Assembly: GCF_003044035.1 (NCBI RefSeq)
Contig: NZ_NVQC01000022.1
Coordinates: forward strand, 210,001-242,000
Length of the DNA: 32,000 nt
Source: Candidatus Methylomirabilis limnetica
GTDB lineage: Bacteria > Methylomirabilota > Methylomirabilia > Methylomirabilales > Methylomirabilaceae
Direction: 5' to 3'
Both the position numbers and the translations under genes were made by a program. Of the stretch, positions 12,347-30,328 are shown one piece after another. Under the pieces are notes generated by a model that searched no databases, was not told the DNA's origin, and saw nothing but the letters and a program-made list of their open reading frames with translations. Every line of letters starts with the position of its first letter. Positions within the stretch are counted from its first letter, which is position 1.

Positions 12347-12645
12347 GATAATAGGGACAGACACTATTATCGTGACGATTCGTGGTGTGTACGGTCATGA
12401 TCGTGCATGCCACGGATTACCTGAGCCGTTGCATCCGGCCACCCGTATCATGTGAGGCAACGAGGGAATGATCACCAGGCGGTCGTTCGGAACGACAGCG
12501 ATTCGAAGGCACACGATGACAGAGCGGCCACTGCAAAGAGACGGGTTCATCTGGGAGGTGCGCAGGACACTGGACGAGTAATACACGTGTTGCAGAGGGG
12601 AAGACCAAGAAAGGGTTTCAATAAATAGTGTCTGTCCCTATTATC
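12347..12645 (+). mobile_element. Non-autonomous ~290-bp element (MITE/PATE-like mini-REPtron), copy 1, inverted relative to copies 2-5
   Basis: Ends GATAATAGGGACAGACACTATTATC and AATAGTGTCTGTCCCTATTATC are inverted repeats, and each can fold as a hairpin. The interior carries ATGCCACGGATTACC...CACCCGTATCATGTGAGGCAACGAGGGAATGATCACCAG, a RayT-like MPRIT..HPYHVRQRGNDHQ N-terminus broken by a stop or frameshift. Confidence 0.8.
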
Positions 12646-12676
12646 GCCTCAGCCTAGTTTTTCTTAGCCTGCTCGC

Positions 12677-15600
12677 TTATGGCTGGCCCTGATCCGGTCT
12701 GCGGTCGGGGGCCTGGCCACCACCCGAGCGCAGGTCACCGGGCAGGTCTAGGATCCGCTTGAAGATCCCGAGAACCCCTCGCTCGACCGACTGAGTCGGG
12801 ATGCCCTCAACCGCCGGCTGGGTTATGGGTCCGTGAATTCGAAACGAGATTACCAGAATGCTCTTCTCTTTCCCGAAGAGGAGCGTTCCGATCTTAAGCT
12901 CCTTCATGATCGGCAGTTCGCTGGTTGCCTTGAGAGCCTCGTCGGTGAGGCTCAGCGGTCGCACCGCGAGGACCACATCGACCGTGCGATGAGCTAAGTC
13001 AAACTGGCCGACGCCCCCGGCACGCAGGGCCGTACTCCGTAGCTTCAGGTCCTCCGTTCTCGCGATCCCATCCTTGAGATTGAAGGTCGCGCTGATGTCA
13101 TCGTAGGGCATCCCTTTCCCTTCTGGCCCCTTCTTGAAGAGCCCAGTGAGGTTGGTCATCCTCAGAACCTTCTCGATCATGAAAGAGCGTTGAATCCTCC
13201 CATCGACCATCTCGATCCGCACTCGCCCCCCAAGGGAGCGAAGAAAATACTCACCCCCTCCAGCCGTGACTACCCCGCTTGCCCGCACCTGTCCCGTCGC
13301 AAGAAATGAGTCCTGATCCTTGACGATTCGCTCGGCGCGACCCTCCTCCATGGTCAACTGAATTCGCCAGCGCCACCCGGGCTGCTCAAGTCTACCCTGG
13401 ACCGTCGCGCCCAGCGTCCCACCACCCCAGCGAGCCTGCAAATGGGTGGTCTCGACAGACGTCTCTTTGAACTGGATCTCTCCCGCAAGATGTTCCAGGG
13501 GCCCTGGATGCCCCCGAACGGTGAGCGAGGCGTCTTTCGTGCGGAGATGTCCACGATAGCGAGGAAGCCGTTGAGTCCCCTGAATCCTCACATCCAGGTC
13601 CAGCACCCCTGTGGCGTCGAGGCCATCGGGGAGCAGGGCGCTGGCCAGTGCCCCGGAGACAGCCCCTCGGATTGTCACGTCCATTTCCTCACCGATGGTC
13701 CCCCCCACGGTGACCTCAGTCCCCTCGCCTCGAAGCGACAGCGCTGAGATCATAAGTCGCCCTCCTTGAAACGCGAGACGGGTCCGATCCTGGGTCCGAA
13801 AGGCGTGCCCTCGGAAATTCAGTTGGGCCGTTTCGAGGTCCACGGTCACCCGCTCAGGCCTCTGCTCCCCGAGCCGACCGCCGATTTCGATCCGTCCTGA
13901 ACCGACTCCGTCCATCTGATTGGGAAGGGAAGCCCCGACGATCCTCAGAAGGGACCCAAGATCGCCCTTCTCCAGCGTGAGAGTTCCCTCGTATGGGCTG
14001 GCGCCCGTGGCCGTGACCACGCCTTGGAGCATGTAGCCTCGGTCAGGGAGGCTCAGGAGTCCCGTCATGCGCGCCCGAGCCCCTTCCCAGGTCAGGGTGC
14101 CGTGCCCTCGGCCGAGGCTTGTCCCCCGGTAGGCCAGGTCCCCAACCTCGAGTGTCGTCGTGACGTTTGGTTGGCCGATCGGTCCTTCCCCTTTGGCCGA
14201 GGCCCGCACCGTCCCCGTGAGCCCTGAATTCCGGAGGAGCGCCAGGCGTTCAATAGCGATCCGATTCGAGCTCAAGTCGAACTGTGACACACCATTGAAG
14301 CCTACCTCGAAGCGACCTGCGATCATCTCGCCTCCCCGGTGCAGTTCGAGGCCCTCAAGGCGAAGCCCTCTCTGATCGAGGTGCACAGTGGCGCGCCCTC
14401 GGTCCCAGTGCTCCTTGAGGATAAGGGCGTTCGTGAGCGTCACCGTGCCCTGTCCGTGGAGGGTTTCTGGCGTTCCTCGGATCTGCCCTTTGAGGGTGGC
14501 CTGTCCGGCAAGCGCGTGAGGATCGATGCCCACGAGGCGCCCGGTGTGCTCGAGCTGCGGGAAGTGGGCGTACACGCTGAGACTTACCTCCCCGTTCGGC
14601 TGAACGACGCCCTCGGCTTGCAGGCGCGCGCGGCCAATTTCGACCGTGCCCTGCCGGACGTGGATCCGACCATCTCGAGCTTCAAGGACGAACTGACCAT
14701 GACCCCGCTCTTCGGGGCGATCGATGAGATACAACTCCGCGATGCGGATGTGGGCCTGGCCTCGCAGCCCCCTGAGGTCAGCCCCTTCGCCCGTCGCCTG
14801 AATCTGGATCGTGGCCTGCCCACCCACCGGAGTCTTTTCCGTAAAGAGGCGCAGGATGTCGGCCAAATCGACCTGCTCCCCGCGCAGGGCGAGGCGGTAT
14901 CGAAGCTTCTCCCAGATAAGCATGATGTCTCCGGTCAGATCGCCTCTCGCCGTTCGTAGGGTAAGCTCCTGTAGGCGAAGCTCACGGCGATTTGCCAGAA
15001 CCGCGACGGTCATTCCCGACATAGCGACCTGCTCGATCTGCCCGTTGCCCACTGCGGCGGAACCGGTGAAAGAGGGATCTGTCAGGGGTCCTGTCGCCTT
15101 CCCCTCAAGCAGGACAGCCCCCCTAAGGGGAATGGGCAGATTCAGTGGAAAAAGCCCGTCAAGCCCACCACGCGCCTGCATGGTCAGATCAAGTGTCGCG
15201 TCGGTCAGGAAGTTGTGGATGCGACCCGCTCCCTGAACGGCGGCCCCCAGGACGGAGAGGTGGAATTGCTTGACCTGGATGTCGCCTCCGTCAACCTCCG
15301 CCCTCAGGGTGAGATCGCGAAGGAGGAACGGCGTTGCTCCTCCTTGGATCTTGCTCTCTTCAATCTTGAGCGTCCCTCCGACCACCCCTGCGGTTGCTCG
15401 CAGGTCGGCGTGGAGCCCGACCAGTGTCAGTTCGATGCCGGAGTCTCGCCAGAGGACCGATCCGTCCCGGATCTCCACGTGCTCGATGCCGACCGGCAGG
15501 AGAACGGGCATCGGTGAGCCCGGTTCCGTCTGTGGGCGTGGCAGTTCTAACCGAACGATGGGGTGACGCAGCACGATCCGGCCAAGGCGGAGGCGGAACC

Positions 15601-15967
15601 GAAGGAGGTCCATCAGGTTCGGATAAAGTTGCACCTCCTCAATCTTTGCGAGGACTCCGTCCTGGAGCCGCTCCCGGCTCGCGATTCGGACGTCCCGGAG
15701 ATTCAATGATCGGAGGACCGCGCTCACGCGTACCTCGCCGATCTGGACCTCATGGTCGAATCGTGCCTGGACCTCGGACTGGATTCGGGATCGAATCTTC
15801 GCCTGAATAGAGTGAGTCCGCAGCAGCAGGGAGATACTGCCAAGCACGAAGAGGATGAGTCCCGCCACGATTCCAATCGTGATGACGACCCACCGGGCCC
15901 GGCCAGTCACAGGCAGTGGCACGAGAGGCATACGATGCAATGACTTACCCGTCACGCCGGTATCCAA
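12677..15967 (-). CDS. AsmA/TamB-family large envelope protein (N-terminal TM anchor)
   Basis: 1096 aa. N-terminal hydrophobic helix WVVITIGIVAGLILFVLGSISLLL, a long repetitive beta-rich body, and a C-terminal region resembling the DUF490/AsmA C-terminus. The family call rests on architecture only. Confidence 0.65.
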   Translation of the reverse strand: MDTGVTGKSLHRMPLVPLPVTGRARWVVITIGIVAGLILFVLGSISLLLRTHSIQAKIRSRIQSEVQARFDHEVQIGEVRVSAVLRSLNLRDVRIASRERLQDGVLAKIEEVQLYPNLMDLLRFRLRLGRIVLRHPIVRLELPRPQTEPGSPMPVLLPVGIEHVEIRDGSVLWRDSGIELTLVGLHADLRATAGVVGGTLKIEESKIQGGATPFLLRDLTLRAEVDGGDIQVKQFHLSVLGAAVQGAGRIHNFLTDATLDLTMQARGGLDGLFPLNLPIPLRGAVLLEGKATGPLTDPSFTGSAAVGNGQIEQVAMSGMTVAVLANRRELRLQELTLRTARGDLTGDIMLIWEKLRYRLALRGEQVDLADILRLFTEKTPVGGQATIQIQATGEGADLRGLRGQAHIRIAELYLIDRPEERGHGQFVLEARDGRIHVRQGTVEIGRARLQAEGVVQPNGEVSLSVYAHFPQLEHTGRLVGIDPHALAGQATLKGQIRGTPETLHGQGTVTLTNALILKEHWDRGRATVHLDQRGLRLEGLELHRGGEMIAGRFEVGFNGVSQFDLSSNRIAIERLALLRNSGLTGTVRASAKGEGPIGQPNVTTTLEVGDLAYRGTSLGRGHGTLTWEGARARMTGLLSLPDRGYMLQGVVTATGASPYEGTLTLEKGDLGSLLRIVGASLPNQMDGVGSGRIEIGGRLGEQRPERVTVDLETAQLNFRGHAFRTQDRTRLAFQGGRLMISALSLRGEGTEVTVGGTIGEEMDVTIRGAVSGALASALLPDGLDATGVLDLDVRIQGTQRLPRYRGHLRTKDASLTVRGHPGPLEHLAGEIQFKETSVETTHLQARWGGGTLGATVQGRLEQPGWRWRIQLTMEEGRAERIVKDQDSFLATGQVRASGVVTAGGGEYFLRSLGGRVRIEMVDGRIQRSFMIEKVLRMTNLTGLFKKGPEGKGMPYDDISATFNLKDGIARTEDLKLRSTALRAGGVGQFDLAHRTVDVVLAVRPLSLTDEALKATSELPIMKELKIGTLLFGKEKSILVISFRIHGPITQPAVEGIPTQSVERGVLGIFKRILDLPGDLRSGGGQAPDRRPDQGQP

Positions 15968-15989
15968 GACGAATCATCCGCACTTCTCT

Positions 15990-16289
15990 GTTGAGATCCC
16001 CCCTGTTACGAGCAATTATATTCTGGTGGAAACTTTTGCGCTTTTGCAAAATCGCCTCGGCATGGAAGCGGCACGAGCATTTCAGGACGATATACTCCCG
16101 CTGATCAACATTGAGTTTATTGCCTCGGGTACACATCGATCCGGGGTCGCGGCCCTTCTGTCTGCATCAAGACGAGATCTCAGCATAGTGGATTGTGTCA
16201 GCTTTGAGGTCATGCGCACATCAGGGATTAACACCGTCTTTGCCTTCGACAAGCATTTTAAAGAGCAAGGGTTTACCAATATAGCCTGA
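15990..16289 (+). pseudogene. N-terminally truncated PIN-domain toxin (vapC remnant)
   Basis: The C-terminal two-thirds of a VapC-like PIN domain is present (VTSNYILVETFALLQNRLG...DLSIVDCVSFEVMRTSGINTVFAFDKHFKEQGF). The first acidic-residue block and any vapB partner are missing. The upstream part of the ORF overlaps the asmA-like gene start. Confidence 0.55.
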
Positions 16290-16354
16290 CTCTCGTAACC
16301 TTGCCTAGGGCCATTCACTGGCCCGGCCTCCGCTTAGTTGCCGCCACTAACTGA

Positions 16355-16480
16355 TGCCTGGACCAAGCGATCCGCGAGGATCTCTACTACCGCCTCAATG
16401 TCATCACTGTCTCGCTTCCACCACTCAGAGACCACCCCGAGGATATCGCCCCCTTAACTAATCGCTTCCTGGCCCAATAA
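16355..16480 (+). pseudogene. ~40-codon fragment of a sigma54-dependent (NtrC-family) AAA+ activator
   Basis: In-frame translation [40 protein letters not shown] matches the conserved [20 protein letters not shown] block. There is a stop directly upstream (16352) and no rest of the gene. Confidence 0.6.
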
Positions 16481-16732
16481 GACTGATCCGCGTGTGGTTC
16501 GCCTGGCTCACCATGAGCGGAGGGAGACATCCACGGCATGCATGACTTATGCAAGGATCAATAATTATTTCGGTTCTTCCGGCACTAGCGTGGGTACAAG
16601 AGGGCTCAATATCCCTTCTGGGGAATAGGGTAGCTGTGCTCCTACCCCTTGAGGGGAGAGGATGAAGGTGGGGGTGATCGGATCCTGGAAGGCCCGGGTA
16701 CCCACGGAACATCCGGAAGAAGCATTATTTTC

Positions 16733-16769
16733 TTGACGTATTAGTCATATATATACTACTAAGGAGTAG
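16733..16769 (+). promoter_or_regulatory. lexA promoter/operator region
   Basis: TTGACG at 16733-16738 is followed by GTATTAGTCAT. Imperfect 22-bp palindrome TTAGTcaTATATATAcTACTAA at 16741-16762. Palindrome CTACT-N4-AGTAG at 16756-16769. RBS AGGGAG at 16789 and ATG at 16800. Confidence 0.4.
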
Positions 16770-16799
16770 AGGTTCAGAGGAGAAAATCAGGGAGACTCG

Positions 16800-17393
16800 A
16801 TGGTACTCACCGACCGGCAGCGGCAGATCCTGACTTTCATCGCCACCTATAAGGCCCGGCATGGTGCCCCCCCGACGCAGCGCGAGATCGCCCAGCACTT
16901 GAAGATCTATATTCGGGGCGTCCAGTATCACCTCGAGCGTATGGAGAAGGCCGGCCATCTCACCCGCACGCCCAAGCGGGCGCGGGCCATCGAACTGCGC
17001 CAGGAGCAACGCACCACCCTCACGCCTCTACTCGGTCGGGTGGCGGCCGGCCGGCCGGTCCTGGCCGAAGAGCATATCGAGGCCACGTACCCGCTTCCCC
17101 AGGAATGGACCGGTAGCGGGAAGACCTTCCTCTTAAAGGTTCATGGCGACAGCATGCGCGATGCCCGCATCTTTGACGGCGACCTCGTGCTCGTGGCGGC
17201 GCAGCCGGAGGCCCACCCTGGCGAGATCGTTGTGGCCATGGTCGAGAACGAGGCCACGGTCAAGCGCTTCCAGACGGACGGCACGACGGTCGTCCTCATG
17301 CCGGAGAACGAGGCGTTCGCGCCGATCAGGATCACGCAAGAGCAGCGTTTTCAGATCCTGGGTAAGGTCATCGGCGTCTATCGGAAGCTGTAG
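16800..17393 (+). CDS. lexA: LexA repressor (S24 peptidase)
   Basis: 197 aa. Winged-helix N-terminus (TDRQRQILTFI...REIAQHL), cleavage site VAAGRP, catalytic Ser in HGDSM and Lys in ATVKRF. Confidence 0.9.
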   Translation: MVLTDRQRQILTFIATYKARHGAPPTQREIAQHLKIYIRGVQYHLERMEKAGHLTRTPKRARAIELRQEQRTTLTPLLGRVAAGRPVLAEEHIEATYPLPQEWTGSGKTFLLKVHGDSMRDARIFDGDLVLVAAQPEAHPGEIVVAMVENEATVKRFQTDGTTVVLMPENEAFAPIRITQEQRFQILGKVIGVYRKL

Positions 17394-17395
17394 TC

Positions 17396-18100
17396 ATGCA
17401 ACGTGTGCTTACGCCCAAGCCGCCCTTGTCCCAGTTCACCTGCGCCCTCGACCGGTGGAGCGCGCAGGGTGGCCTCGTCCTGCTCTATGGCAGTGAAGAT
17501 GTCCTCGCCTATGCCCTATTGGCGATCGCCTCGCTGCTCGCCAAAGGAGAGCATGTCGTCTTCATCGATTCGGCCAACACCGTCAACCCCTTCCTGATCG
17601 CCGAGGTCGCGACGCGCATGAACAGGCAGCCGAAAGAGCTCCTCGACTGCCTCCATATTTCACGGACCTTCACCGTCCATCAACTGGAGGCCCTCATCAC
17701 GGAACGCATCGCCAGAGCCCTGCACACCTATGCCTCACGCATCCTGATCGCCTCCGGCTTTCTCCACAACCTCTATGATGAAGACGTGGCGCCGCGGGAG
17801 GCTTGGCGGATCTTCAGAAAAGCGGTGGCCCATCTGCGGGCGCTGGCCGATGCAGGCACCCTCGTCCTGGTGGTCTGTCCCACACCAGCCGCTCGTAGTG
17901 AGCCAGGTCGAACCATCCGTCTCCGTGACCGGGACGGGCTGCTGGATGCCCTGATCGCCACGGCCGATCGAGTTGTCAAGCTGGTCACCTCCACTACTTC
18001 GGCTACGCTCAGTACAGGGCTCTCCCTGGAAAAGTCGGTCATGGTGAGGAGCACAGCTAAAAGACTTGACCGCCTCTCAGGTTTGGCATACGAAACGTAA
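17396..18100 (+). CDS. ImuA/SulA-like inactivated RecA-fold protein
   Basis: Starts 2 nt after the lexA stop. It has RecA/KaiC-like topology (LVLLYGSEDVLAYALLAIASLLAKGEHVVFIDSANTVNP...LHISRTFTVHQLEALI...RILIASGFLHNLY), but the Walker A GKT is replaced by GSEDVLAY. Confidence 0.5.
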   Translation: MQRVLTPKPPLSQFTCALDRWSAQGGLVLLYGSEDVLAYALLAIASLLAKGEHVVFIDSANTVNPFLIAEVATRMNRQPKELLDCLHISRTFTVHQLEALITERIARALHTYASRILIASGFLHNLYDEDVAPREAWRIFRKAVAHLRALADAGTLVLVVCPTPAARSEPGRTIRLRDRDGLLDALIATADRVVKLVTSTTSATLSTGLSLEKSVMVRSTAKRLDRLSGLAYET

Positions 18101-18206
18101 GCGGCTTACTGAATAGTTATACGTCGCAAGCATAGTTGTTCACATGCACCTGCGCCAGTTGATCGCAGTACAGAACAATCGGGGTTATCTGCGGACAGGA
18201 GTCTTG

Positions 18207-19196
18207 ATGCTAAGTCGATTTGAAAAACAACTCTTCGGGCTGATGACGGGCGCTTTTGCATCTCGAGCGCTTGCGATCGCGGTTCAACGAGATCTATTCA
18301 CGTGGCTGTCGCGGGGGGGAGACGGGCAGACAGTAGAACAAGTCGTCGCGTATTTGGGGTTTCAAGAGCGGACCTCACGAGTATTTCTTGATGTGCTCTC
18401 CGCGATAGGGCTCTTGCGGTGCGAGAATGGACTGTTCCGTAACACTGAGCTCTCTGAGCAGCTCTTGGTACGCGGTCGCATAGCCGATCAACGTGGCGCC
18501 GTCGCGCTGTTTGATCATTTGTATCTTGGGTGCGGAACACTTGAACACACGCTCAAAACAGGAAATCCGGCCAGCCGTGAATATGGGTACTTTTTTGGCG
18601 CCGGTACAGGTTCTTACCCGGATGATATGGACGGAAGTGGGTTTGCACCCGCGCTACTCCTCGGTGAGTTTTGGGATTTCTCCAATGCGCGGCACGTTCT
18701 CGACGTGGGCGGATGTCTCGGAGCTACAGCTCACGCGCTGGCGGCACGATATCCCAACCTTCGCGTAACGGTGTTCGACCTTCCCGAAATTTGTGAACGC
18801 GGGAAGGCCTTGTCCAAGCAGCATCCGGCATCTGACGCGCGCGTGACATTTCACCCGGGGAATTTCTTTGACGAGGACTACCCGCATGGGGTCGATACCA
18901 TTTGCTTTGTGCGCATCCTTCACGATTGGTCCGATAAGGAGGCGCTTCGTCTCTTGGAGAAAGCACATGCGGCTCTGCAACCAGGGGGACGAATCGTCAT
19001 TCTCGAAACGCTGCGCGAAGGTTCAGAGAAGGCGTCACTGACCGCATTGATCGATCTTCTGATGCTGCTAATCAGTCCGGAAGGAGGGCTAAGAACAAGA
19101 GTGGCAATGGGCAAACTCTTGCGCACTGCTGGATTTCGAAGGGTCCGGACAAAGCCAACCGCGTATCTTTATAGCCTCATTTCTGCCGAGAAATAA
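18207..19196 (+). CDS. Class I SAM-dependent O-methyltransferase (COMT/Methyltransf_2-like)
   Basis: N-terminal winged-helix dimerisation region, SAM motif VLDVGGCLGATAHALA, DLPE, then ILHDWSD and GGRIVILE. I prefer the ATG at 18207 (GGAG upstream). The ORF track starts at 18144. Local GC is about 50%. Confidence 0.8.
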   Translation: MLSRFEKQLFGLMTGAFASRALAIAVQRDLFTWLSRGGDGQTVEQVVAYLGFQERTSRVFLDVLSAIGLLRCENGLFRNTELSEQLLVRGRIADQRGAVALFDHLYLGCGTLEHTLKTGNPASREYGYFFGAGTGSYPDDMDGSGFAPALLLGEFWDFSNARHVLDVGGCLGATAHALAARYPNLRVTVFDLPEICERGKALSKQHPASDARVTFHPGNFFDEDYPHGVDTICFVRILHDWSDKEALRLLEKAHAALQPGGRIVILETLREGSEKASLTALIDLLMLLISPEGGLRTRVAMGKLLRTAGFRRVRTKPTAYLYSLISAEK

Positions 19197-20569: not shown

Positions 20570-20725
20570 GTAACTACTTAGGTGTTTAGGCTGAAGGCTG
20601 AAGGTTCTAAATTATCTCGCAAGGCACGAATCGATCCATTCAAGACCTTTTCGGAGTTTTGTATGATCACGCATGACTTACCCCTAACAGCCTTCAGCCT
20701 TCAGCCTAAACACCTGAGTAGTTAC
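20570..20725. repeat. 35-bp inverted repeat (one G-U position) enclosing an 86-nt loop, at the predicted 5-prime end of the polB transcript
   Basis: Left arm 20570-20604 is gtaactacttaggtgtttaggctgaaggctgaagg. Right arm 20691-20725 is ccttcagccttcagcctaaacacctgagtagttac. A tandem cctgagtagtt x2 and a competing palindrome cacctgag...ctcaggtg (20711-20744) follow. Confidence 0.85.
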
Positions 20726-21077: not shown

Positions 21078-23271
21078 TCTCTATCCGTCCAGGGACGGGA
21101 TGGTGCTTTGGCTCAAGACCGAGCAGGAATGCCTCCGCCTGGTTGACACGTACTGGGCGTCGTTTTACCTTGCCGGCCCAGACGCGGCGCTCAAGGCGTG
21201 CGTGTCCTACATGCTCCGGCAGCGCCTGCCGATCACGACGGAGTGGACAGAGCGCCGGGAGTTGTTGTCGAATCGTTTCATCCCCGTGCTCAAGGTCAGC
21301 ACGTCGAGACTCGACAGGTTCTCCGCCTTTGTCCAGTTGGCCTATCGGTTCAACCCGGAGCTCACCTTCTACAACTGCGATATCCTGCTACCGCAGCGCT
21401 ATCTCTACGAGACGGGGTTGTTCCCTCTGGCCCAGTGTGAACTGACTTACGATGAGAGCCTACGACTCAAAGAGATCCAGCTCTTGGATTCGCCGTGGGC
21501 TGTCAACTACCCCATCCCGCCGCTTCGCTTCCTGCAACTGCGGATGGAGCATGAGGCCAACCCGAGCCACGCCCGGACCACCCGGTTAATCGCGTCAGTC
21601 GATGACCGCGAGTTCGTCTTCGAGGCGGAAGGGGCAGAGCTTCTGAGGAGTCTGAACAGCCTACTCCAGAAGTACGACCCCGATGTTATCCTCTCGCGAT
21701 ACGGCGATTCGTACATCCTTCCCAGACTCCGGAGGATGGCGGATACGTGTGGCATCCCGCTTGACTTCAACAGGGACGGCGCGGCAGGGATGACCAGCAA
21801 GCAGGCCAGGAGCTTCTTCACCTACGGCAGGATCGTCTATCAGGCGGGTGCTCAGATCTTGCATGGCCGCTGGCACCTGGATATCGCGAACTCGTTTGTT
21901 GTCAAGGAGACGGGTCTGGACGGCCTGATGGAGCTGGCCCGGGTCACGAAGCTACCGGTACAGCGTTGCGCGAGGACCTCTCCAGGTACGGGCGTCTCAT
22001 CAATGCAGCTTGACGTGGCGTTCCAGGATGGCTATTTGATCCCCTGGCGCAAGCGAATGCCGGAGGATTTCAAGACCGGGAGCGAGCTGCTGCTCACAGA
22101 CAAGGGGGGCTTGGTCTTTCAGCCGCAGATTGGGTTGTACGAGCAGGTCTGCGAGCTCGACTTCAGCTCAATGTTTCCCAGCATCATGGTCAAGTATAAC
22201 ATCTCGCAGGAAACTCTGCGGTGCGCCTGCTGTCCGGAGAACAGGGTCCCGGAGATCGGCCACCACATCTGCACGAAGCGGCGGGGGCTGGTGCCTCGGA
22301 CGCTCGAGCCGGTGCTCACGCGGCGGCGCGCCTACAAGCTGCTGATGCGGCAGGCAGTCACGGCGGACGAGCGCGAGCTGTACAACAAGCGACAGTCTGC
22401 TCTCAAGTGGCTTGGCCTGGTCTCATTCGGGTATCAGGGATACCGGAACGCGCGCTTCGGACGGCTTGAAGGGCACGAGGCGGTCACCGCCTATGCGCGG
22501 GAGACGCTGCTGGCTGCCAAGGAGATCGCTGAGGCACAAGGCTACTCGCTCATCCATGCGATTGTCGATTCGATGTGGCTGAAGAAGGCGGGCGCGACAC
22601 GGGAGGATTATGAGCGGCTGGCGGCAGACATCTCGCGGCAGACCGGGCTTTCTATGGCCATTGAAGGGGTGTACCATTGGATCGCATTCCTGCCGTCACG
22701 GGTATCCCCGAAGGCACCGGTCCCCAACCGCTATTTCGGCTGTTTCGTAGACGGCACACTCAAGGTGCGGGGCCTGGAGGTCAGGCGCTCAGACACGCCG
22801 GGGTTTGTGCGGAGCGCCCAGGCTGCGATGCTTAAGACGCTCTCGCAGGCCAGAACCTACGACGAATGCACAGCGCGGGTCCCTGAACTACTCGACGAGC
22901 TGAGGGTACGCGTTGATGCACTACGAAGCGGCGGGGTACCGCTTGCGGAGTTGGCCATCTCCAGACACCTGTCTCTAGTACCTGTGGCGTACAAGACCGA
23001 CACGATCCTCTCGGAGGCGGCCAAGGACCTTGCGAGTCGAGGGGTTCATCTCTCTGCAGGTGAGACGATCCAGCTTGTGATCGTGGACTCTAAAGCCAAC
23101 GATCACGTCTCGAAAGCAAAAGCGTACGGTTTTTACGACGGCAGCCTGGGATACGATGTCGAGAAGTACACGGAACTCACGCTGAAGGCCGCAGAGTCGG
23201 TACTGTGGTTTTTAGGCTACGACTATGCCCGGTTGAAGGCGCTGATATCGGGAGAGCGCAACGACTGTTAA
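21049..23271 (+). CDS. Family-B DNA polymerase, archaeal PolB/Pol II-like, with degenerate exonuclease domain
   Basis: 740 aa, colinear by eye with Pfu-type PolB. Matching blocks are N-terminal GWLFDLY, FYNCDILLPQRYLYETGL, DPDVILSRYGDSYILPRL, motif A ELDFSSMFPSIMVKYNISQETL, motif B RQSALKWLGLVSFGYQGY, motif C LIHAIVDSMW and RGLEVRRSD. TTG start with GGAG 8 nt upstream. Confidence 0.9.
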   Translation: MRTQKGWLFDLYPSRDGMVLWLKTEQECLRLVDTYWASFYLAGPDAALKACVSYMLRQRLPITTEWTERRELLSNRFIPVLKVSTSRLDRFSAFVQLAYRFNPELTFYNCDILLPQRYLYETGLFPLAQCELTYDESLRLKEIQLLDSPWAVNYPIPPLRFLQLRMEHEANPSHARTTRLIASVDDREFVFEAEGAELLRSLNSLLQKYDPDVILSRYGDSYILPRLRRMADTCGIPLDFNRDGAAGMTSKQARSFFTYGRIVYQAGAQILHGRWHLDIANSFVVKETGLDGLMELARVTKLPVQRCARTSPGTGVSSMQLDVAFQDGYLIPWRKRMPEDFKTGSELLLTDKGGLVFQPQIGLYEQVCELDFSSMFPSIMVKYNISQETLRCACCPENRVPEIGHHICTKRRGLVPRTLEPVLTRRRAYKLLMRQAVTADERELYNKRQSALKWLGLVSFGYQGYRNARFGRLEGHEAVTAYARETLLAAKEIAEAQGYSLIHAIVDSMWLKKAGATREDYERLAADISRQTGLSMAIEGVYHWIAFLPSRVSPKAPVPNRYFGCFVDGTLKVRGLEVRRSDTPGFVRSAQAAMLKTLSQARTYDECTARVPELLDELRVRVDALRSGGVPLAELAISRHLSLVPVAYKTDTILSEAAKDLASRGVHLSAGETIQLVIVDSKANDHVSKAKAYGFYDGSLGYDVEKYTELTLKAAESVLWFLGYDYARLKALISGERNDC

Positions 23272-23319: not shown

Positions 23320-23572
23320 TTGTCTGACCCTCCTGTGACGGCATAAGCATCCCTGTATTTTCAATCAGTTAGACATCGGAGTGCTGGACGCTCCCCACCT
23401 ATTGTACCTCATTACCCATGAGTTCCACATCAGAGGTGGAATGCAGGCGGAATGACTGAGGTGCTAATGTGCAAACTCCAGACTATCGCCGGTGTGACCA
23501 CCGACATAATTCAAGCGTAGTTATATGCGAAGGGCGATGGTGGTTGGTGATCGCGCCTGAAGGAGCCGGAGA

Positions 23573-24199: not shown

Positions 24200-24226
24200 C
24201 CGCTCCCGTCAGAGACGACCGTCTCG

Positions 24227-24518
24227 ATATAGGGATAGACACTATTCATTGAAATCCTTTCTTGGTCTTCCCCTCTGCTACGCGTGTATTACTCGTCCAG
24301 TTTCCTGCGCCCCAGATGAACCCATCCCTTCGTAGTGGCCGCCCTGTCATCGTGTACCTCCGAATCGCTGTCGTTCCGAAAGGCCGACTGGTGATCATTC
24401 CCTCGTTGTCTCACATGATACGGGTGGCCGGATGTAACGGTTCGAGCAATCCGTGGCATGCACGATCATGACCGCGAACACCGCGAATCGTCACGATAAA
24501 TAGTGTCTGTCCCTATTT
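24227..24518 (-). mobile_element. ~290-bp non-autonomous element, copy 2
   Basis: Ends ATATAGGGATAGACACTATT and AATAGTGTCTGTCCCTATTT. Interior is colinear with the other copies. The RayT-like N-terminus is on the minus strand. Confidence 0.8.
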
Positions 24519-24631
24519 ACCTCTTTACTAGCCGCTGCGTCGGGCGGCGCTCTATCTCGCCATGTGCGGCGCATGCCAAGCTACTTGCGCTGCTGAGGCC
24601 CCGCCCTGCCGATGACAGAGACCTGCGTCCC

Positions 24632-24934
24632 CTAGCGCGGGGCAGGATGTGTGGCGGTAATTCGATTCACCTTGATCTTCGCAGCGTGTCGTTCTGCCTG
24701 AGCAAGGTCATACTCCATCTGTAGACCGAGCCACACCTCGGGGCTGCTGCCGAAGGCCTTAGAAAGTCGGATCGCCATCTCCGGAGAGATCCCGGCCTTC
24801 TCGTTCACCAGGTTGTTGAGGGCCTGCCGCGTCACACCAAGGCGTTTCGCTACGTCTGTAACAGTCACTCCGAGCGACTCGATACACTCTTGGCGGACAA
24901 TCCTTCCGGGGTGGGGGGGATTCTTCATACGCAT
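24632..24934 (-). CDS. higA: HigA-family antitoxin (XRE HTH)
   Basis: MKNPPHPGRIVRQECIESLGVTVTDVAKRLGVTRQALNNLVNEKAGISPEMAIRLSKAFG is the classic HigA/VapI pattern. AGGAG RBS. The gene lies downstream of higB. Confidence 0.9.
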   Translation of the reverse strand: MRMKNPPHPGRIVRQECIESLGVTVTDVAKRLGVTRQALNNLVNEKAGISPEMAIRLSKAFGSSPEVWLGLQMEYDLAQAERHAAKIKVNRITATHPAPR

Positions 24935-24956
24935 GCCGTATTCTCCTTTTTCCCTA

Positions 24957-25235
24957 CTAGTGGTAGTCGATCAGATCTACATCATATACGTCGCCTTCCT
25001 CAAAGCGGAAGATGACTCGCCAGTTTGCCCGGACAGTCACGCTCCAGAAGCCTGTGAGGTCACCCTTGAGCCGGTGCAGTCTAAAACCTGGCAGGTTCAT
25101 TTCTTCAGACCTTCTGGCGCGGTTCAACATGAACAGGATGTTTTCGAGTTTCTCGAGTAGATCCGGGGAGACGCCCCTGACATCACCCTGTTGAAACAGC
25201 CGTCTCAACCCCTTATGCCCGAACCGTTGAATCAT
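24957..25235 (-). CDS. higB: HigB toxin (RelE/ParE superfamily, plasmid-killer type)
   Basis: 92 aa. FGHKGLRRLFQ...LHRLKGDLTGFWSVTVRANWRVIFRFEEGDVYDVDLIDYH. Confidence 0.9.
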   Translation of the reverse strand: MIQRFGHKGLRRLFQQGDVRGVSPDLLEKLENILFMLNRARRSEEMNLPGFRLHRLKGDLTGFWSVTVRANWRVIFRFEEGDVYDVDLIDYH

Positions 25236-25368
25236 GGCTCAGCGTAGCATGATTAGTGACAAGTGTCCATTGTCGTGACGAGACCCCATCTCACCGTGAC
25301 CCACATCCCCTTATGATCGCTGGAGCCGCCGCCTGAGGTTACCCGCACCTGGAAGTCGAAGTATAGTG

Positions 25369-25663
25369 ATATAGGGACAGACACTATTTATTGAAAACCT
25401 TTCTTGGCCTTCCACTCTGCAGCACGTGTATTACTCATCCAGTTTCCTGCGCACATCCCAGATGACCCCGTCTCTTCCAGTGGCCGTTCTGTCATCGTGT
25501 GCCTTTGAATCGCTGTCGTTCCTAAAGACCGCCTGACGATAATTCCCTCGTTGCCTCACATGATACGGGTGGCCGGATGCATACTGTTCGAGTAATCCGT
25601 GGCATGCACGATCATGACTGCGAACACCACAAATTGTCACGATAATAGTGTCTGTCCCTATTT
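25369..25663 (-). mobile_element. ~290-bp non-autonomous element, copy 3
   Basis: Ends ATATAGGGACAGACACTATT and AATAGTGTCTGTCCCTATTT. The right terminus word CCTATTTTT is reiterated just outside the element (to 25676). Confidence 0.8.
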
Positions 25664-25943
25664 TTCCTATTTTTCGTGCTGGGCGCTGACTGGGGTGACC
25701 TGAGGACTCCCAGGAACGGGACGAGGGGCATGGGAGGACGAGGGAGGAGTACTTGTCTCGGATTGGGTGATTCGGGTCCCAAGAGGCCGCTGAGCGGGTG
25801 AGCCCGCGTACAGAGACGTGCTCCTCGTGGGCCATGCTGGTCACGGGGTCTTCAAACCGTCGTGATCGGTTCACAATGGGATTATGGCAAAGGCTATCTC
25901 TGTTTTTGGGCACATCCTGCAACGAGACAATCGGCCGGTTTCA

Positions 25944-26171
25944 CTATTTGTTAGAAGCGTGAAGGAATTGCTCAACCGTTAATCCCGCCTTGGAGATAAG
26001 ACTGCGGAGGGTCCCGCGTGCAACTTCTGGGTGGTTAGGGATGGAGAGAGTGACGCTGTGGCCTGGTTTCGTCATGATAATGTGACTTCCCTTTTGTCGA
26101 ACTACTTGCCAACCTAGCGTTTGGAAGATTTGCGCTGCTTCAGATGGGCGAAGAATAGGGGCGGACGGCAT
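25944..26171 (-). CDS. hicA: HicA mRNA-interferase toxin
   Basis: 75 aa. LGWQVVRQKGSHIIMTKPGHSVTLSIPNHPEVARGTLRSLISKAGL is the YcfA/HicA signature. The start overlaps the hicB stop by 1 nt. Confidence 0.9.
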   Translation of the reverse strand: MPSAPILRPSEAAQIFQTLGWQVVRQKGSHIIMTKPGHSVTLSIPNHPEVARGTLRSLISKAGLTVEQFLHASNK

Positions 26172-26377
26172 TACACGGCGACTTCAACTTGACGCGTCGT
26201 GACAGTCAACGGCATGCCCATTTCAGCCCGAACTTCCAGACATTGCCTGATTGCATCCTGAATGTTGGCCTGAGCTTCCTCCTCCGTCTTGCCTTGACTG
26301 ACGCAGCCGGGAATGGCCGGACATTCCGCGACGTATATTCCGTCTTCGTCGCGTGTGATGACTATTGTGAATTTCAT
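26171..26377 (-). CDS. hicB: HicB-family antitoxin (short, RNase H-like fold only)
   Basis: I chose the internal start at 26377, which is preceded by AGGAGGAGCC. MKFTIVITRDEDGIYVAECPAIPGCVSQGKTEEEAQANIQDAI is a typical HicB N-domain. Confidence 0.85.
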   Translation of the reverse strand: MKFTIVITRDEDGIYVAECPAIPGCVSQGKTEEEAQANIQDAIRQCLEVRAEMGMPLTVTTRQVEVAV

Positions 26378-26562
26378 GTTGGCTCCTCCTTCTTGGAGTA
26401 TCCGCCGATAACAGAAGAATTGCAACTGTCCAGAAAAGATAGGTCTATCTCCGGGTTTCGCAACAGAGAGAATGTGATTTGAGGTCCTGTTCATAGGAGT
26501 CCGGTGGCCTTTTCAAGGTATCCGGAATTTGCCCAGGATATCAACGCCCCCGATCGTCAGGG

Positions 26563-26853
26563 ATATCGGGACGGACGCTATTTATTGAAATCCTTTCTTG
26601 ATCTTCCCCTCTGCACCACGTGTATGACTCGTCCAGTTTCCTGCTTCCCAGATAAACCCATCTCTTCGCAGTGGTCGCTCTGTCATCGTGTGCCTTCGAA
26701 TCGCTGTCGTGCCGAAAGACCGCCTGATGATCATTCCCTCGTTGCGTCACATGATACGGGCGGCCGGGTACAACTGTTCGGGTAATCCGTGGCATGCACG
26801 ATCATGACTGCGAACACCACGAATTGTTGCAATAATAGTGTCTGTCCCTATTT
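26563..26853 (-). mobile_element. ~290-bp non-autonomous element, copy 4 (only copy with an unbroken RayT-like N-terminal frame)
   Basis: The left end is degenerate (ATATCGGGACGGACGCTATT); the right end is AATAGTGTCTGTCCCTATTT. The minus strand encodes MPRITRTVVPGRPYHVTQRGNDHQAVFRHDSD and then loses the family pattern. Confidence 0.8.
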
Positions 26854-27021
26854 TTGATCGAGCAGTGGAAGGGGCTGCCGGTCGGCCCACTCTCTCAGAA
26901 CATCCTTGCATATCCCACCCTCGCCGAAGCGAACCGCCGGACGGCTGATCAGTATTACCGCGAGAAGCTCTTCGGACGCCCGCTCAAGAAGTGGCTCCGG
27001 TTCTTCACGCGCCCGGCCTAA
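26854..27021 (+). pseudogene. C-terminal remnant of an FAD-dependent pyridine-nucleotide-disulfide oxidoreductase (dimerisation domain)
   Basis: The frame starting right at the element-4 boundary reads LIEQWKGLPVGPLSQNILAYPTLAEANRRTADQYYREKLF...KWLRFFTRPA*. The block xxAYPTLAEA resembles the conserved HPTLSE motif. No upstream part exists. Confidence 0.45.
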
Positions 27022-27132
27022 GAAAGTGCTCTCTGTCCCTTCCGTTGTATCTATGGCTCCCCACCGCAAGTTCTCTGCTAGGCCTATCGATAAGGGGTAC
27101 CTACCGCGTTGGCAAGCCGCTTCATTTTTTAC

Positions 27133-27174
27133 TTGACACTATTAACTTTGTTTGAGTAGCATTGCTAAACAAAG
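27133..27174 (+). promoter_or_regulatory. Putative promoter with overlapping palindromic operator upstream of the HTH-MEDS gene
   Basis: TTGACA at 27133-27138, an 18-nt spacer, then TAGCAT. The 8-bp arms CTTTGTTT (27146-27153) and AAACAAAG (27167-27174) flank the -10 element. Confidence 0.35.
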
Positions 27175-27254
27175 TAAACTACTTCAAGGTGGCATGAAAA
27201 CCGGGAAGCGACTTGTCCTATCCATAGCTATTTAATTTAAGGAGATTCACTACC

Positions 27255-27995
27255 ATGAGTGGAGGGCATCTACTGAATACAAAGGAGGCGGCGAAGTTTC
27301 TTGGGGTGAGCGAAGCCTCCGTGCGACGCTGGACTGATGCGGGGACCTTGCCCTGCCAAAGGATCGGAGGTCGAAGAGAGCGGCGGTTTACGAAGGGCCA
27401 TCTCCTCCTCTTCCTAAAGGAAGGGGAGCGCCCAACAGTGACATTCCCCGTGCGGCGAGACCTCGTGATGATTGAAGGGATGGACGTGCGGGTGGGAAGC
27501 CACTTCTGCAACCTTTACAGTAACGATGAAGGGAGAGCTAGGCTTGCTATCCCCTTTCTCAAGGATGGCCTCGAATCTGACCAGACCTGCTTTCTTTTGG
27601 CCACACTTGGAGCGCAGCGAGAGATGCTGCGGGAGCTGGAAAGAGAAGGGGTGGATGTGAAGGAGGCTATGGAACGCCATCAGCTGATCGTGGCCTCTGG
27701 GTTTCCTGGAGCAAAGCAGGCACTGGCCTACTTTGAGAAGGCATTTAATGAAGCCCTGAAATCAAGGCCCGGCCATGTCCGGCTGGTAGGGGATATGACG
27801 TGGGGCTTACAGAGCATGCCGTCCGTAAAGGAGTTGATGGACTTCGAGATGCGACTTAACCTCTTTGCGAAGCGGTTCCCCATGGTGGCGATCTGCCAAT
27901 ACGATGTGAGAAGGTTCAATGGAGTTGCCATTCTTCATGTCCTCAAATGTCACCCGGATGTGTTTGGGTATCACTTTGGGAGGTTTCTGAACTAA
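27255..27995 (+). CDS. Transcriptional regulator: excisionase/MerR-type HTH fused to a MEDS (DcmR-like) sensory domain
   Basis: AAGGAG RBS. N-terminus LLNTKEAAKFLGVSEASVRRWTDAGTLPCQRIGGRRERRF. The MEDS pattern is GSHFCNLYSNDEGRARLAIPFLKDGLESDQTCFLL ... RLVGDMTW ... FEMRLN ... AICQYDVRRF ... CHPDV. Confidence 0.75.
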   Translation: MSGGHLLNTKEAAKFLGVSEASVRRWTDAGTLPCQRIGGRRERRFTKGHLLLFLKEGERPTVTFPVRRDLVMIEGMDVRVGSHFCNLYSNDEGRARLAIPFLKDGLESDQTCFLLATLGAQREMLRELEREGVDVKEAMERHQLIVASGFPGAKQALAYFEKAFNEALKSRPGHVRLVGDMTWGLQSMPSVKELMDFEMRLNLFAKRFPMVAICQYDVRRFNGVAILHVLKCHPDVFGYHFGRFLN

Positions 27996-28417
27996 GGAGG
28001 AAAAAGAAGGAGGAGCGCCGAAATAAAACAGATGTGTTAGGTCGGATAGATGTGGTGGGGTTGGCCACCCCGGCAACCCTGACTCCCTGGTCAGGGCCAC
28101 GCACCGAGCAGTGAGGGGCTGCAAGGGGAATCCTTTTGGCCCCTTCCTGTTTGGTGAGGCATCAGGATCACCAAGGCCAGCCAATAAAAACCAGGGGTGG
28201 GAGGAGGTGAAGAGGTAGATGGTCCACAAAATGGGGTCTTGACACCAGAAGGACAAGATCCTGCGGCAACCCTCTCGGTTGGAAATGCGGGGAAATGACT
28301 GGCAGCGAACAACGCACAATCACCAAGAACGGATCGTATCCAGAAACAATCGAAAGGGGCGAAACGAGTAGGTGCATGCGCTATCGACTTAACCACTCAA
28401 AGGGAGGAGAGAAAGAA

Positions 28418-29671
28418 ATGGAAAGCAGGAGCTTCTATACGCAGCTCAGCCACGCCCCCGTGCGTGCCGCTGGAAATGATGTGGATCTCTCAATCTACCG
28501 AAAGGCCGGCGAGCCCACCTATGGAAAGTTTCAATACAAGGCTCCCGCTGAGGGTCTTGTTCAGGTTAACGGGTCCCATAGCGAAAAGTTCGAGTGGACA
28601 GACAATTTTGAGATTGCCTACACAAAAGTGGGAAGCAAAGGCCCACTCGTGCTCTTCTTACACGGCGTCCCTACGAATCGAGCGCAATGGGAGGACATCC
28701 AGAGGCATGTTGGCAGATTCTGTGAAACCATCGCCATTGACATGCTCGGCATGGGTGAGAGCACCCAACCTCGTCAGTACGGTAAGAAAAAGGACAAGGG
28801 GGACAACGACCGGTGGTACTGGAAACACGATGCCGACTACATCGAAAAGCTCATGCAGCATGAGTATCCTGGTCGGAAGTTTATCTTTGTCGCTGATGAC
28901 TGGGGAAGTGGTATCGCCTCACATCATGCCGCCAAACATAATGATCGCTTGGATGCCCTCGTTCAACTGGATCCCATTGCTTTTGATGGATATCCAGTAA
29001 ACGAGATCCAAGCGATTGGCCGCGCCTCCATGATCCCTAACACACCTGAGGGGGACGCAAGGTTTGCCGCCGCATTCGGTGCGTTTGATCAGACTCTTGC
29101 GCTGATCTACAAGACTTTGGTTCACGACCCGGCTGTGTTCAATCAATACAAACTGAGACGCCTCACATTCCCATATGTTGATGTTGATTATGAGAGGAAC
29201 GGTACTGGAGATGGAGTAACCGATGTTGCGAAATCCACTACCCTTAGACTGAAGATGCACAACATCCGGGTGCTAGCCGATCGTGCAGCGATCCTCAGTC
29301 CTGCACTGCTCTTACCCTATGACGCGAAAAGGAACCCGGAGGGTGTCAAATACGAGGACATTACTGTACCAACGCTCATCATGTGGGGAGAGTACGACAA
29401 TATAATGCCTGCAGCACAAACCCAACGATTTGCGAACGTCCTCGGTACTGACAATGTTCATATAACCTACGTACCTCGTGCAGGTCACTTTGCCGGAATC
29501 GATCAACCAAGGTTCGTTGCGGACACCATCGTCAACTTTATCCGCCGCGTCAAGGGCCGCAAGGCCTTGGCTGATATCAATCTTGGTAACGAGGGTATCT
29601 GGAAGGGGGATGAGCGCCTCCTAATCGAGGAGCTCCGAGCGATTTATGGAATTGAGGTTGAACCCCACTAA
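28418..29671 (+). CDS. Alpha/beta hydrolase, haloalkane-dehalogenase/epoxide-hydrolase-like, with extra N- and C-terminal segments
   Basis: Start chosen at ATG 28418, after AGGGAGGAGAG. LVLFLHGVPTNRAQW (HGxPT), nucleophile elbow FVADDWGSGIA (Asp-Trp), and catalytic His in RAGHFAGIDQP. Local GC is about 50%. Confidence 0.8.
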   Translation: MESRSFYTQLSHAPVRAAGNDVDLSIYRKAGEPTYGKFQYKAPAEGLVQVNGSHSEKFEWTDNFEIAYTKVGSKGPLVLFLHGVPTNRAQWEDIQRHVGRFCETIAIDMLGMGESTQPRQYGKKKDKGDNDRWYWKHDADYIEKLMQHEYPGRKFIFVADDWGSGIASHHAAKHNDRLDALVQLDPIAFDGYPVNEIQAIGRASMIPNTPEGDARFAAAFGAFDQTLALIYKTLVHDPAVFNQYKLRRLTFPYVDVDYERNGTGDGVTDVAKSTTLRLKMHNIRVLADRAAILSPALLLPYDAKRNPEGVKYEDITVPTLIMWGEYDNIMPAAQTQRFANVLGTDNVHITYVPRAGHFAGIDQPRFVADTIVNFIRRVKGRKALADINLGNEGIWKGDERLLIEELRAIYGIEVEPH

Positions 29672-29742
29672 AAAACCCATCGGAGCGAATAATAGATCCA
29701 CGCTATTCGCAGGGTGTCTCCGAGGGGAGCCTGAATCTGGTA

Positions 29743-29904
29743 ATGGTCCAACAGCAAGAACGGCTCCTCACGCAGATCGACGCGGCGATCCGGCGACACA
29801 AGGCGGGGACCTATGGGCGCTACGTCGGGCGTGGCGAGGAGATCCCCCTCGCCCGGCGTTGTGCTCCGCACCAGGAGGAGTATGAGGGGCGGCCGCCTGG
29901 CTAG
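29743..29904 (+). pseudogene. Cys-less DksA/TraR-like remnant (53 codons)
   Basis: MVQQQERLLTQIDAAIRRHKAGTYGRYVGRGEEIPLARR... follows the DksA/TraR pattern L..I..AL.R...GTYG.C..CGE.I...R, but the zinc-finger Cys codons read R/Y/R. Too short for the ORF track. Confidence 0.4.
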
Positions 29905-29919
29905 TAGCCGAAGATCCAG

Positions 29920-29960
29920 TACCATGAAAAAGGAATATTAAGTGTTTGATTTTCATGGTA
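29920..29960. repeat. Conserved-stem hairpin, copy A (TACCATGAAAA / TTTTCATGGTA, 19-nt loop)
   Basis: Read directly. The stem is identical to copy B, while the loop differs at about 7 positions. Confidence 0.7.
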
Positions 29961-30033
29961 TACTCCGCACATGATCAAACGGCCGCTCACCCTCTCACGG
30001 ATCCTGCGCGCCTTGTCGCGAAGCCGCGCAGGG

Positions 30034-30328
30034 ATATAGGGACAGACACTATTTATTGAAATCCTTTCTTGGTCTTCCCCTCTGCTACACGTGTATTACT
30101 TTTCCAGTTTCCTGCGCACCTCCCAGATGACCCCATCCCTTGCCAGTGGTCGCTCTATCATCGTGTACCTCCGAATCGCTGTCGTTCCGAAAGATCGCCT
30201 GGTGATCATTCCCTCGTTGCCTCACATGATACGGGTGGCCGGGTGCTACGATTCGAGCAAGCCGTGGTATGCACGATCATGCCTACGAACACCACGAATC
30301 GTCACGATAATAGTGTCTGTCCCTATTT
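30034..30328 (-). mobile_element. ~290-bp non-autonomous element, copy 5
   Basis: Ends ATATAGGGACAGACACTATT and AATAGTGTCTGTCCCTATTT, followed by the reiterated words CTATTTTA CTATTTTC CTATTTTC (to 30348). Confidence 0.8.

Follow-up and report, generated by a model that had tools for sequence, protein, structure and literature searches.

How did a repeat of about 290 bp, bounded by inverted, hairpin-forming ends and holding a fragment of a transposase gene, come to lie five times in a 32-kb stretch of Candidatus Methylomirabilis limnetica DNA (the window, meaning the whole stretch analyzed), and what moved it there? We consider it very likely that the copies are nonautonomous derivatives, resembling miniature inverted-repeat elements (MITEs), of a 746-bp transposon of the TIRtron kind, which arose through a single deletion, then spread, and were moved in trans by a full-length "master" gene resident in the same organism. 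The evidence comes from the copies and their ends, from full-length relatives in other genomes, and from the master itself.

An alignment of the five intervals showed colinear copies of 291 to 299 bp, the first of them reverse-complemented, with a mean column identity of 86%, pairwise identities of 86 to 90%, and a similarity that ends abruptly at both edges. A repeat finder recovered the same copies (families D1-D4 and I1-I8), in agreement with an earlier note on this DNA, which had described five colinear homologous copies from the letters alone. Copy 1 (12347 to 12645) carries the transposase relic on the plus strand, has its ends at 12351 to 12368 and 12624 to 12641, and is joined at about 12496/12497. 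The others carry the relic on the minus strand: copy 2 (24227 to 24518; ends 24229 to 24246, with 1 mismatch, and 24499 to 24516; junction about 24369/24370), copy 3 (25369 to 25663; ends 25371 to 25388 and 25644 to 25661; junction about 25514/25515), copy 4 (26563 to 26853; ends 26565 to 26582, decayed with 3 mismatches, and 26834 to 26851; junction about 26705/26706), and copy 5 (30034 to 30328; ends 30036 to 30053 and 30309 to 30326; junction about 30180/30181).

The inverted ends that the earlier note had assigned to each copy are captured by the 18-mer ATAGGGACAGACACTATT, which matched the window 10 times at 3 mismatches or fewer, once per end of every copy and in inverted orientation, against 0 matches in shuffled sequences. 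Conservation over 175 ends taken from many genomes covers about 21 nt (AAATAGGGACAGACACTATTT) and falls 4 bases outside the 18-mer; the 25-nt top-strand sequence carrying the end is TTAAATAGGGACAGACACTATTTAT. Folded as single-stranded DNA, a window end reached -3.8 kcal/mol on the top strand (z = -31) and -2.4 kcal/mol on the bottom strand (z = -13), so the proposal that each end can itself fold holds for both strands, and the sequence does contain the 8-bp stem (GATAATAG/CTATTATC) that was noted for copy 1, at one of its ends.

For a noncircular test of the hairpin, 80 loci were picked by protein similarity alone (39 to 59% identity), 71 genes of which were usable. De novo, motif-free detection found terminal inverted repeats (TIRs) around about 65 of the 71, typically 55 to 65 nt upstream of the start codon; these independently sampled relatives have the same type of ends, at a fixed spacing from the gene. 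Their cores read GGGACAG, GGGGACAG, GGGGACAC, or GGGGTCAA. The exact window-type core occurred at only about 1 in 10 loci of this unbiased sample; the ends therefore do evolve, and the window type is one subfamily. The outer arms of each end are self-complementary, and the differences between loci are compensatory, with stems such as AAATAG/CTATTT, AAGTAG/CTACTT, AAAGG/CCTTT, AAATAGGG/CCCTATTT, and AAAGTCGTG/CACGACTTT, and, in a more distant group, GAATT/AATTC, GAGTT/AACTC, and CAATT/AATTG. Arms paired with those of their own locus gave a mean stem of 5.04 bp, against 4.41 bp with those of another locus, a value exceeded in 0 of 2,000 permutations. RNAalifold predicted no structure from 16 ends, whose variable loop lengths threw the MAFFT alignment out of register, and a center-anchored pair count used an ascertained subset and is illustrative only. 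Because the arms are self-complementary and covary between loci, we think that the TIRs are REP-like hairpins with a conserved loop.

At 29 of the 175 ends (loci L001-L120), tandem partial copies of the terminal AAATAGG(GACA) lie 8 to 16 nt outside the end. In the window, such a stutter follows the right end of copy 3 (25661 to 25680; CCTATTTTT, CCCTATTTTTCCTATTTTT) and that of copy 5 (30326 to 30350; CTATTTT/CCTATTTT, CCCTATTTTACTATTTTCCTATTTT). It could be a target-site mimic, an excision footprint, or slippage, and would be relevant to the mechanism if the cleavage or target site is reflected there.

The parent of the copies was found in other genomes. A search with the 18-mer in one genome per species gave more than 120 loci among the matches listed, in which the inverted pairs fell into four size classes of 41 to 58, 69 to 195, 290 to 294, and 744 to 849 bp. 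The largest class encloses one gene, which fills the space between the ends and encodes a product of 223 to 225 amino acids (aa) that starts with MPRIARIV.PG.PYH.TQRGNYRQ.(I/V)F and contains the HUH motif NHVHF and the tyrosine motif RYVERNP. Six units (L029, L069, L098, L109, L108, and L085) have an intact Y1 transposase between the same ends, and thus represent the full-length copy that the earlier note had envisaged. The parent unit measures 746 bp and encodes a transposase of 225 aa, the stop codon of which overlaps one end. The Y1_Tnp profile PF01797 (cutoff, 23 bits) scored 62.2 bits for L109 and 52.5 bits for L098, and the residues N59-H60-V-H62 and Y119-V-E-R-N-P of the master are invariant in 68 relatives. 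The NCBIfam IS200 model (transpos_IS200, NF033573) reached 25.3 bits, under its cutoff of 55. An AF2 model (pLDDT, 87.3) had 4ER8_A as its best Foldseek match (E = 3.5e-8; TM 0.67 on the target), followed by IS608, ISDra2, and IS200 TnpA; a PDB sequence search with the master missed 4ER8, which was found only by fold. 4ER8 is a complex of the REP-associated tyrosine transposase (RAYT) of E. coli with a REP hairpin. In a Nitrospirae metagenome-assembled genome (MAG), two truncated tandem copies, each with an end and about 60 nt of the 3' part of the gene, precede the full-length element (L069, 2121 to 2260).

Aligned with a full-length unit, a window copy gave two blocks of about 145 and 147 bp around a 457-bp gap (L109, 3561 to 4017). 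All five window copies have the junction ..GGAACGACAGCGAT|TCGAAGG.., which recurs unchanged in six copies of other assemblies (L005, L031, L034, L055, L056, and L106). One junction common to 11 copies indicates a single deletion whose product then spread. The deletion took codons 31 to 182, approximately, and with them the HUH motif and the catalytic tyrosine, both of which had rightly been reported as missing from the copies. Short imperfect direct repeats, GAAGAT and GAAGCGAT, lie at the breakpoints, and the deletion between them produced the 291-bp unit, which then multiplied by transposition into intergenic sites. That an internally deleted unit was itself amplified, as the earlier note had proposed, is supported by the common junction and the two-block alignment; its description of this as unusual was fair, though only in a modest sense, since internal deletion is the usual origin of MITEs.

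The window comes from an organism that also holds an intact member of the family. Six proteins encoded in the window match Ca. M. limnetica proteins (PTL35773-35784) exactly, and the window is 100% identical to ENA ERZ4201065 NODE_3. The master, PTL35238.1/WP_107563546.1 (P0126), annotated as "transposase," is found in the same organism, as had been expected of a master element elsewhere in the genome. In ERZ4201064 it lies on NODE_131 (coverage, 394), with the window-equivalent contig NODE_16 at a coverage of 370, and master and window-equivalent DNA co-occur in ERZ27287891. In none of these results, in substance, did we see what would have spoken against a Y1 origin, be it a lack of Y1 similarity, a lack of a master, or ends belonging to another insertion sequence (IS) family.

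The master lies between thiI and an NMO gene in five assemblies (L109, L128, L129, L130, and L135), with flanks of 82 to 91% nucleotide identity. This synteny marks it as a vertically inherited gene at a conserved thiI-NMO locus, and its single-copy status refers to this locus. Its pairwise dN/dS values of 0.11 to 0.30 indicate purifying selection. The master's own ends, on the other hand, are eroding: in M. limnetica the upstream end is perfect and the downstream end has 3 mismatches, and elsewhere we counted 2 mismatches (L130), at least 5 (L128), and 3 upstream and 1 downstream (L129). We infer that the master itself is largely immobile.

The dispersed copies show the opposite pattern of preservation. 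Sites that deviate from the consensus make up 2.0% of their ends and 8.3% of their interiors (Fisher p = 7e-7; p = 0.003 for the five window copies alone), and this roughly 4-fold better conservation of the ends points, indirectly, to repeated selection for mobility. No target-site duplications were detected, the flank repeats of 55 elements being equal to the control, which fits the single-strand chemistry of HUH/Y1 enzymes and argues against a DDE transposase. The copies were probably mobilized in trans by PTL35238.1, and may still be so at present. We propose that PTL35238.1, intact and stationary, would move the 291-bp copies in trans, that its substrate would be the hairpin of each end in single-stranded DNA, as seen in the complexes of 4ER8 and IS608, and that it would cut and rejoin via a 5'-phosphotyrosine intermediate without target duplication, after the model of IS608 TnpA and E. 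coli TnpA-REP. By analogy with these enzymes, recognition of a single-strand hairpin is probable. The picture is that of a stationary, selected single-locus gene with decaying ends together with dispersed, gutted copies with preserved ends; a stationary RAYT gene with a dispersed REPIN population is a described pattern (PMC5581495; 10.1101/2021.07.10.451892).

Several points weigh against this reading. Neither an empty site nor a transposition event was seen, the assemblies of the species (97.7 to 100% identical) being all filled alike and every contig with the exact HigB protein having the copies in place. The copies are 10 to 14% diverged from each other and 17 to 24% from the resident master, so the burst is old and activity may have ceased. 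The hairpin stem of the window subfamily has only 6 or 7 A/T-rich pairs (-2.4 to -3.8 kcal/mol), and the C-terminal extension of the enzyme might recognize the ends as duplex DNA. The best NCBIfam model, REP_Tyr_transpos (NF047646), gave 74.2 bits, short of its cutoff of 80. Within the literature searched, no TIR-associated tyrosine transposase (TIRYT) is known to have been studied biochemically. The copy counts are those of the 32-kb window.

As a rival reading, the copies may be dead fossils that were amplified long ago and are no longer mobilized. The resident gene would then serve the host in some other way, and the ends would be conserved because the host uses them, for example to bind proteins or as transcript 3' ends. 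This explanation, which shares the origin by deletion and spread and differs on present activity only, seems to us possible, although rather unlikely. It would account for copies that are 86 to 90% identical without any near-identical pair, for the lack of presence/absence polymorphism among the available assemblies, and for the decay of the master's own ends, and it would agree with the report of Bertels et al. of no REPIN association in RAYT groups outside 2 and 3 (10.1101/2021.07.10.451892). However, it sits poorly with ends kept 4-fold better than interiors and with an intact master under purifying selection. The sister genome Methylomirabilis bin48 is a further difficulty, as it has a second family of 117 bp, with the same ends around an unrelated interior, which suggests that the ends are still in use.

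The gene fragments within the copies are inert relics, neither a functional peptide nor an RNA. What remains of the interior is a degraded promoter and leader, codons 1 to 30, and the last 45 or so codons out of frame, the latter a C-terminal remnant that the earlier note had missed. In copy 4, the peptide MPRITRTVVPGRPYHVTQRGNDHQAVFRHDSD is encoded at 26700 to 26795 on the minus strand, about 40 nt inside one end, and the relic open reading frame (ORF) of 84 aa (26541 to 26795, minus strand) has residues 1 to 30 of the transposase as its own residues 1 to 30, then passes the junction into the C-terminal gene part out of frame and runs through the element end. A second relic frame of copy 4 (..AIRRHTMTERPLRRDGFIW..; 26582 to 26734, minus strand) corresponds to C-terminal residues 183 to 200, approximately, of the transposase (..IRRHTMTGRPLGRDGFI..). 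Searches of Pfam, NCBIfam, and PDB with the stub peptide alone had no match, not even at E <= 10, as expected of only about 30 residues, and a word-indexed protein search with the peptide returned two other stub ORFs and nothing else. Against a profile of the full-length family, hhalign gave a probability of 98.3% (E = 1.8e-14). The identification of the stub as a Y1 transposase N terminus was thus recovered with the family profile, although Pfam is silent on the stub by itself.

The frame has decayed in different ways, with a stop at codon 6 in copy 1, a frameshift in copy 3, and the ATG changed to ATA in copy 5. The frame had been thought intact only in copy 4, which was incorrect, as the relic ORF of copy 2 (24289 to 24459, 56 aa) is also open from its ATG to the junction. 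Two of the five copies have a frame that stays open from the ATG across the junction, and remnants of the gene promoter lie inside the end; both could be cited for a conserved interior with a product, either a structured small RNA or an N-terminal peptide regulating the transposase. We regard such a product as very improbable. The start codon or frame was lost in 6 of the 11 copies examined; the substitutions at codon positions 1, 2, and 3 (31, 25, and 18) are not third-position-heavy, so the stub is without coding constraint; and the promoter hexamers are degraded relative to those of the master. The whole element folded no better than shuffled sequences (z = 0.05), and the window had no Rfam match at gathering thresholds and no tRNAs. 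Short "hypothetical proteins" annotated within such repeats are relics. In some relatives (L095-type proteins, P0095, and L108), the transposase ORF runs through the downstream end, adding ..NSVCPYF, the translated AATAGTGTCTGTCCCTATTT; the same peptide occurs in spurious window ORFs.

TIRs of 18 to 21 bp and a length of about 290 bp are also the typical anatomy of an ordinary MITE of a DDE-type insertion sequence, in which the Y1 fragment would be a passenger or a chance resemblance. However, the Y1 gene is the only one in the full-length unit and takes up all the room between its ends, about 65 of 71 gene relatives have ends of this class at a fixed distance, and target-site duplications are lacking, so this explanation has hardly any probability left. 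An assembly artifact or local segmental duplication, to which four copies within 6 kb might point, can be dismissed almost entirely, given the same arrangement in independent assemblies (ERZ4201065, ERZ4201064, ERZ27287891, a JGI sample, and Logan runs), unique flanks, and copies that differ by 10 to 14%.

All five window copies are intergenic, and four of them are packed within 6 kb (24.2 to 30.3 kb). Copy 1 adjoins the 3' side of a gene for a 1,096-aa AsmA/TamB-like protein (12677 to 15967, minus strand). Copy 2 lies where a 208-aa gene and higA converge with their 3' ends, copy 3 lies between higB (start at 25235) and hicA (3' end at 25944), copy 4 between hicB and a divergent MEDS/HTH gene (27255), and copy 5 between an 85-aa small ORF or an abhydrolase gene and an aconitase gene (from 30660). 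Three copies are thus interleaved with two toxin-antitoxin pairs, HigB/HigA (24632 to 25235) and HicA/HicB (25944 to 26377 or 26494), in what may be merely a gene-poor, insertion-tolerant stretch; a lexA gene (16800 to 17393) and a gene for a family-B DNA polymerase (about 21100 to 23271) lie upstream of this toxin-antitoxin stretch (24632 to 26494). Copy 5 is flanked, at about 70 nt on each side, by two copies of a palindrome of about 45 nt (ATACCATGAAAA..TTTTCATGGTAT, arms of 10 to 12 bp; 29912 to 29961 and 30396 to 30445), one of which overlaps the 85-aa ORF at its start while the other precedes the aconitase gene; they could be an operator-like site or another small repeat. A separate MITE-like element of 156 bp (20570 to 20725), with 35-nt TIRs that are 97% complementary (GTAACTACTTAGGTGTTTAGGCTGAAGGCTGAAGG), sits between an SDR/epimerase gene and DUF8156 and has a relative of 84% identity in Methylomirabilis bin48 (L031, 4179 to 4253).

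Beyond Methylomirabilis, the exact 18-mer was found, paired or beside the gene and among the matches listed, in MAGs labeled Omnitrophota, Nitrospirota, Elusimicrobiota, Desulfobacterota/Thermodesulfobacteriota, Planctomycetota, and Desantisbacteria, whose transposases are 46 to 57% identical to the Methylomirabilis protein. This set was ascertained by the motif, and binning errors are likely for some contigs. About 17 chance matches to the 18-mer are expected in 596 Gb, and isolated matches in Parasalinivibrio, Pelistega, Flavobacteriales, and Methanomethylovorans were discounted as being at this level; the 18-mer was absent from the viral contigs searched. The 291-bp derivative of the Methylomirabilis type, its junction included, is also present, at 84 to 92% identity, at loci L055, L056, and L106 ("Patescibacteria" SMAG_U13113) and L082 (a "Bifidobacteriaceae" MAG), most likely on mis-binned contigs rather than after cross-phylum transfer.

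The related genomes hold a whole size series, from 746 bp down to REPIN-like doublets of 41 to 58 bp, which are inverted-repeat pairs folding as one hairpin; a 48-bp doublet from Elusimicrobia folds at -25.5 kcal/mol. At one Elusimicrobia locus (L053, 4748 to 5524), identical 48-bp doublets stand on either side of the transposase gene in a REPtron-like arrangement. About 650 bp upstream, beside a small gene pair, there is a second type of doublet (4057 to 4104), whose stem is a variant (AAGTAG..CTGCTT).

Almost everything known of RAYTs and REPINs comes from Proteobacteria, in which a transposon origin of REPINs was inferred and not seen. Taken together, the repeat is a MITE-like internal-deletion derivative of a TIRtron, probably mobilized in trans by a domesticated master. 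We suggest tentatively, rating the chance at slightly under even, that the system, size series and loop hairpins included, is an early-stage partnership of the REPIN-RAYT type in a group (TIRYT, subclass 2.1) thought to be without partners. If so, a domesticated, immobile, single-copy master would be accompanied by partners that still show their origin by internal deletion, and the series of 746, 291, 105 to 195, and 41 to 58 bp in related phyla would document the birth of REPIN-like doublets. The TIRs would then be REP-like single-strand hairpins with a near-invariant GGGACAG loop, recognized across at least six phyla. Since the parent, the gene-stub intermediate, and the minimal doublets of related genomes share one end of 18 to 21 nt, the deletion origin is directly visible, and the TIRYT class can maintain nonautonomous populations in uncultivated lineages (NC10, Nitrospirota, Omnitrophota, Elusimicrobiota, and Desulfobacterota). 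A defined 21-nt substrate and a 225-aa enzyme are available for biochemistry. The repeat, from a little-studied transposase class and from uncultivated phyla, is a natural illustration of how REPIN-like elements can originate, clean yet conceptually expected.

Among known systems, ordinary MITEs agree with the copies in size and TIRs, and they too are noncoding, occur in several intergenic copies, and derive by deletion from an autonomous parent, but the parent here is Y1/HUH and not DDE, and there is no target-site duplication. IS200/IS605 elements and PATEs share the catalytic fold, the HUH/tyrosine chemistry, hairpin recognition, and the lack of target duplication. However, the ends of IS200/IS605 elements are not inverted, both hairpins lie on one strand, and insertion occurs 3' of a fixed tetra- or pentanucleotide; because the ends here are inverted repeats, the unit falls outside the IS200/IS605 definition.

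The REPIN-RAYT systems (PMC3116915; PMC5581495) are similar in that a vertically inherited, immobile Y1 gene serves a nonautonomous inverted-repeat population, that relatives in other phyla have 41- to 58-bp doublets folding as one long hairpin, and that, by structure, the protein is closest to the E. coli RAYT (4ER8). They differ in that no GTAG-tagged REP is present here, the protein belongs to a group said to be without REPIN association, the unit is 291 bp long with recognizable gene ends, and the NCBIfam RAYT model scores just below its cutoff. In place of the GT[AG]G foot of a REPtron, the foot here is AAATAG on short, A/T-rich stems, an AAGTAG foot occurring in a few relatives (L163, and a variant in L053). 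The unit is therefore not a REPtron in the strict definition, for want of both the GTAG foot and a score above the NCBIfam cutoff. The term "REPtron-like" in the earlier note was apt for a Y1 unit with inverted hairpin ends; TIRtron/TIRYT is more exact than a canonical REPtron with GTAG-tagged REPs. According to Bertels and colleagues, only RAYT groups 2 and 3 are REPIN-associated (10.1101/2021.07.10.451892), and the Methylomirabilis-type family looks like an exception to this rule outside the Proteobacteria.

The TIRtron with its TIRYT was described as a class by Di Nocera et al. in 2013 (PMC3733652), and Quentin et al. in 2018 (PMC6006769) equated it with subclass 2.1, characterized by NHVH, WQ, Y..NP, a length of about 238 aa, and "no REP-like sequences"; within the literature searched, TIRYT is mentioned only in these two papers. 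Our unit shares with it a RAYT-like Y1 transposase of about 225 to 240 aa with a C-terminal extension, a gene bracketed by TIRs that carry the GGGGWSAS motif (PMC3733652), and ends that are also dispersed as singles, dimers, and clusters. The window subfamily motif, AGGGACAG, agrees with GGGGWSAS at 7 of 8 positions, most relatives having GGGGACAG, GGGGACAC, or GGGGTCAA. The fit to subclass 2.1, judged by the motifs in their Table 1 (NHVH, WQ, Y-V-E-R-N-P, and 225 aa with a C-terminal tail) rather than by the Quentin HMMs or tree, appears good in these respects. The amplified gene-stub derivative and the syntenic master with eroding ends are absent from the published descriptions, and, whereas Quentin et al. 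described subclass 2.1 without REP-like structures, each TIR here is a covarying hairpin. The closest published kind is thus the TIRtron with its TIRYT, here subclass 2.1-like and behaving as a REPIN-RAYT system.

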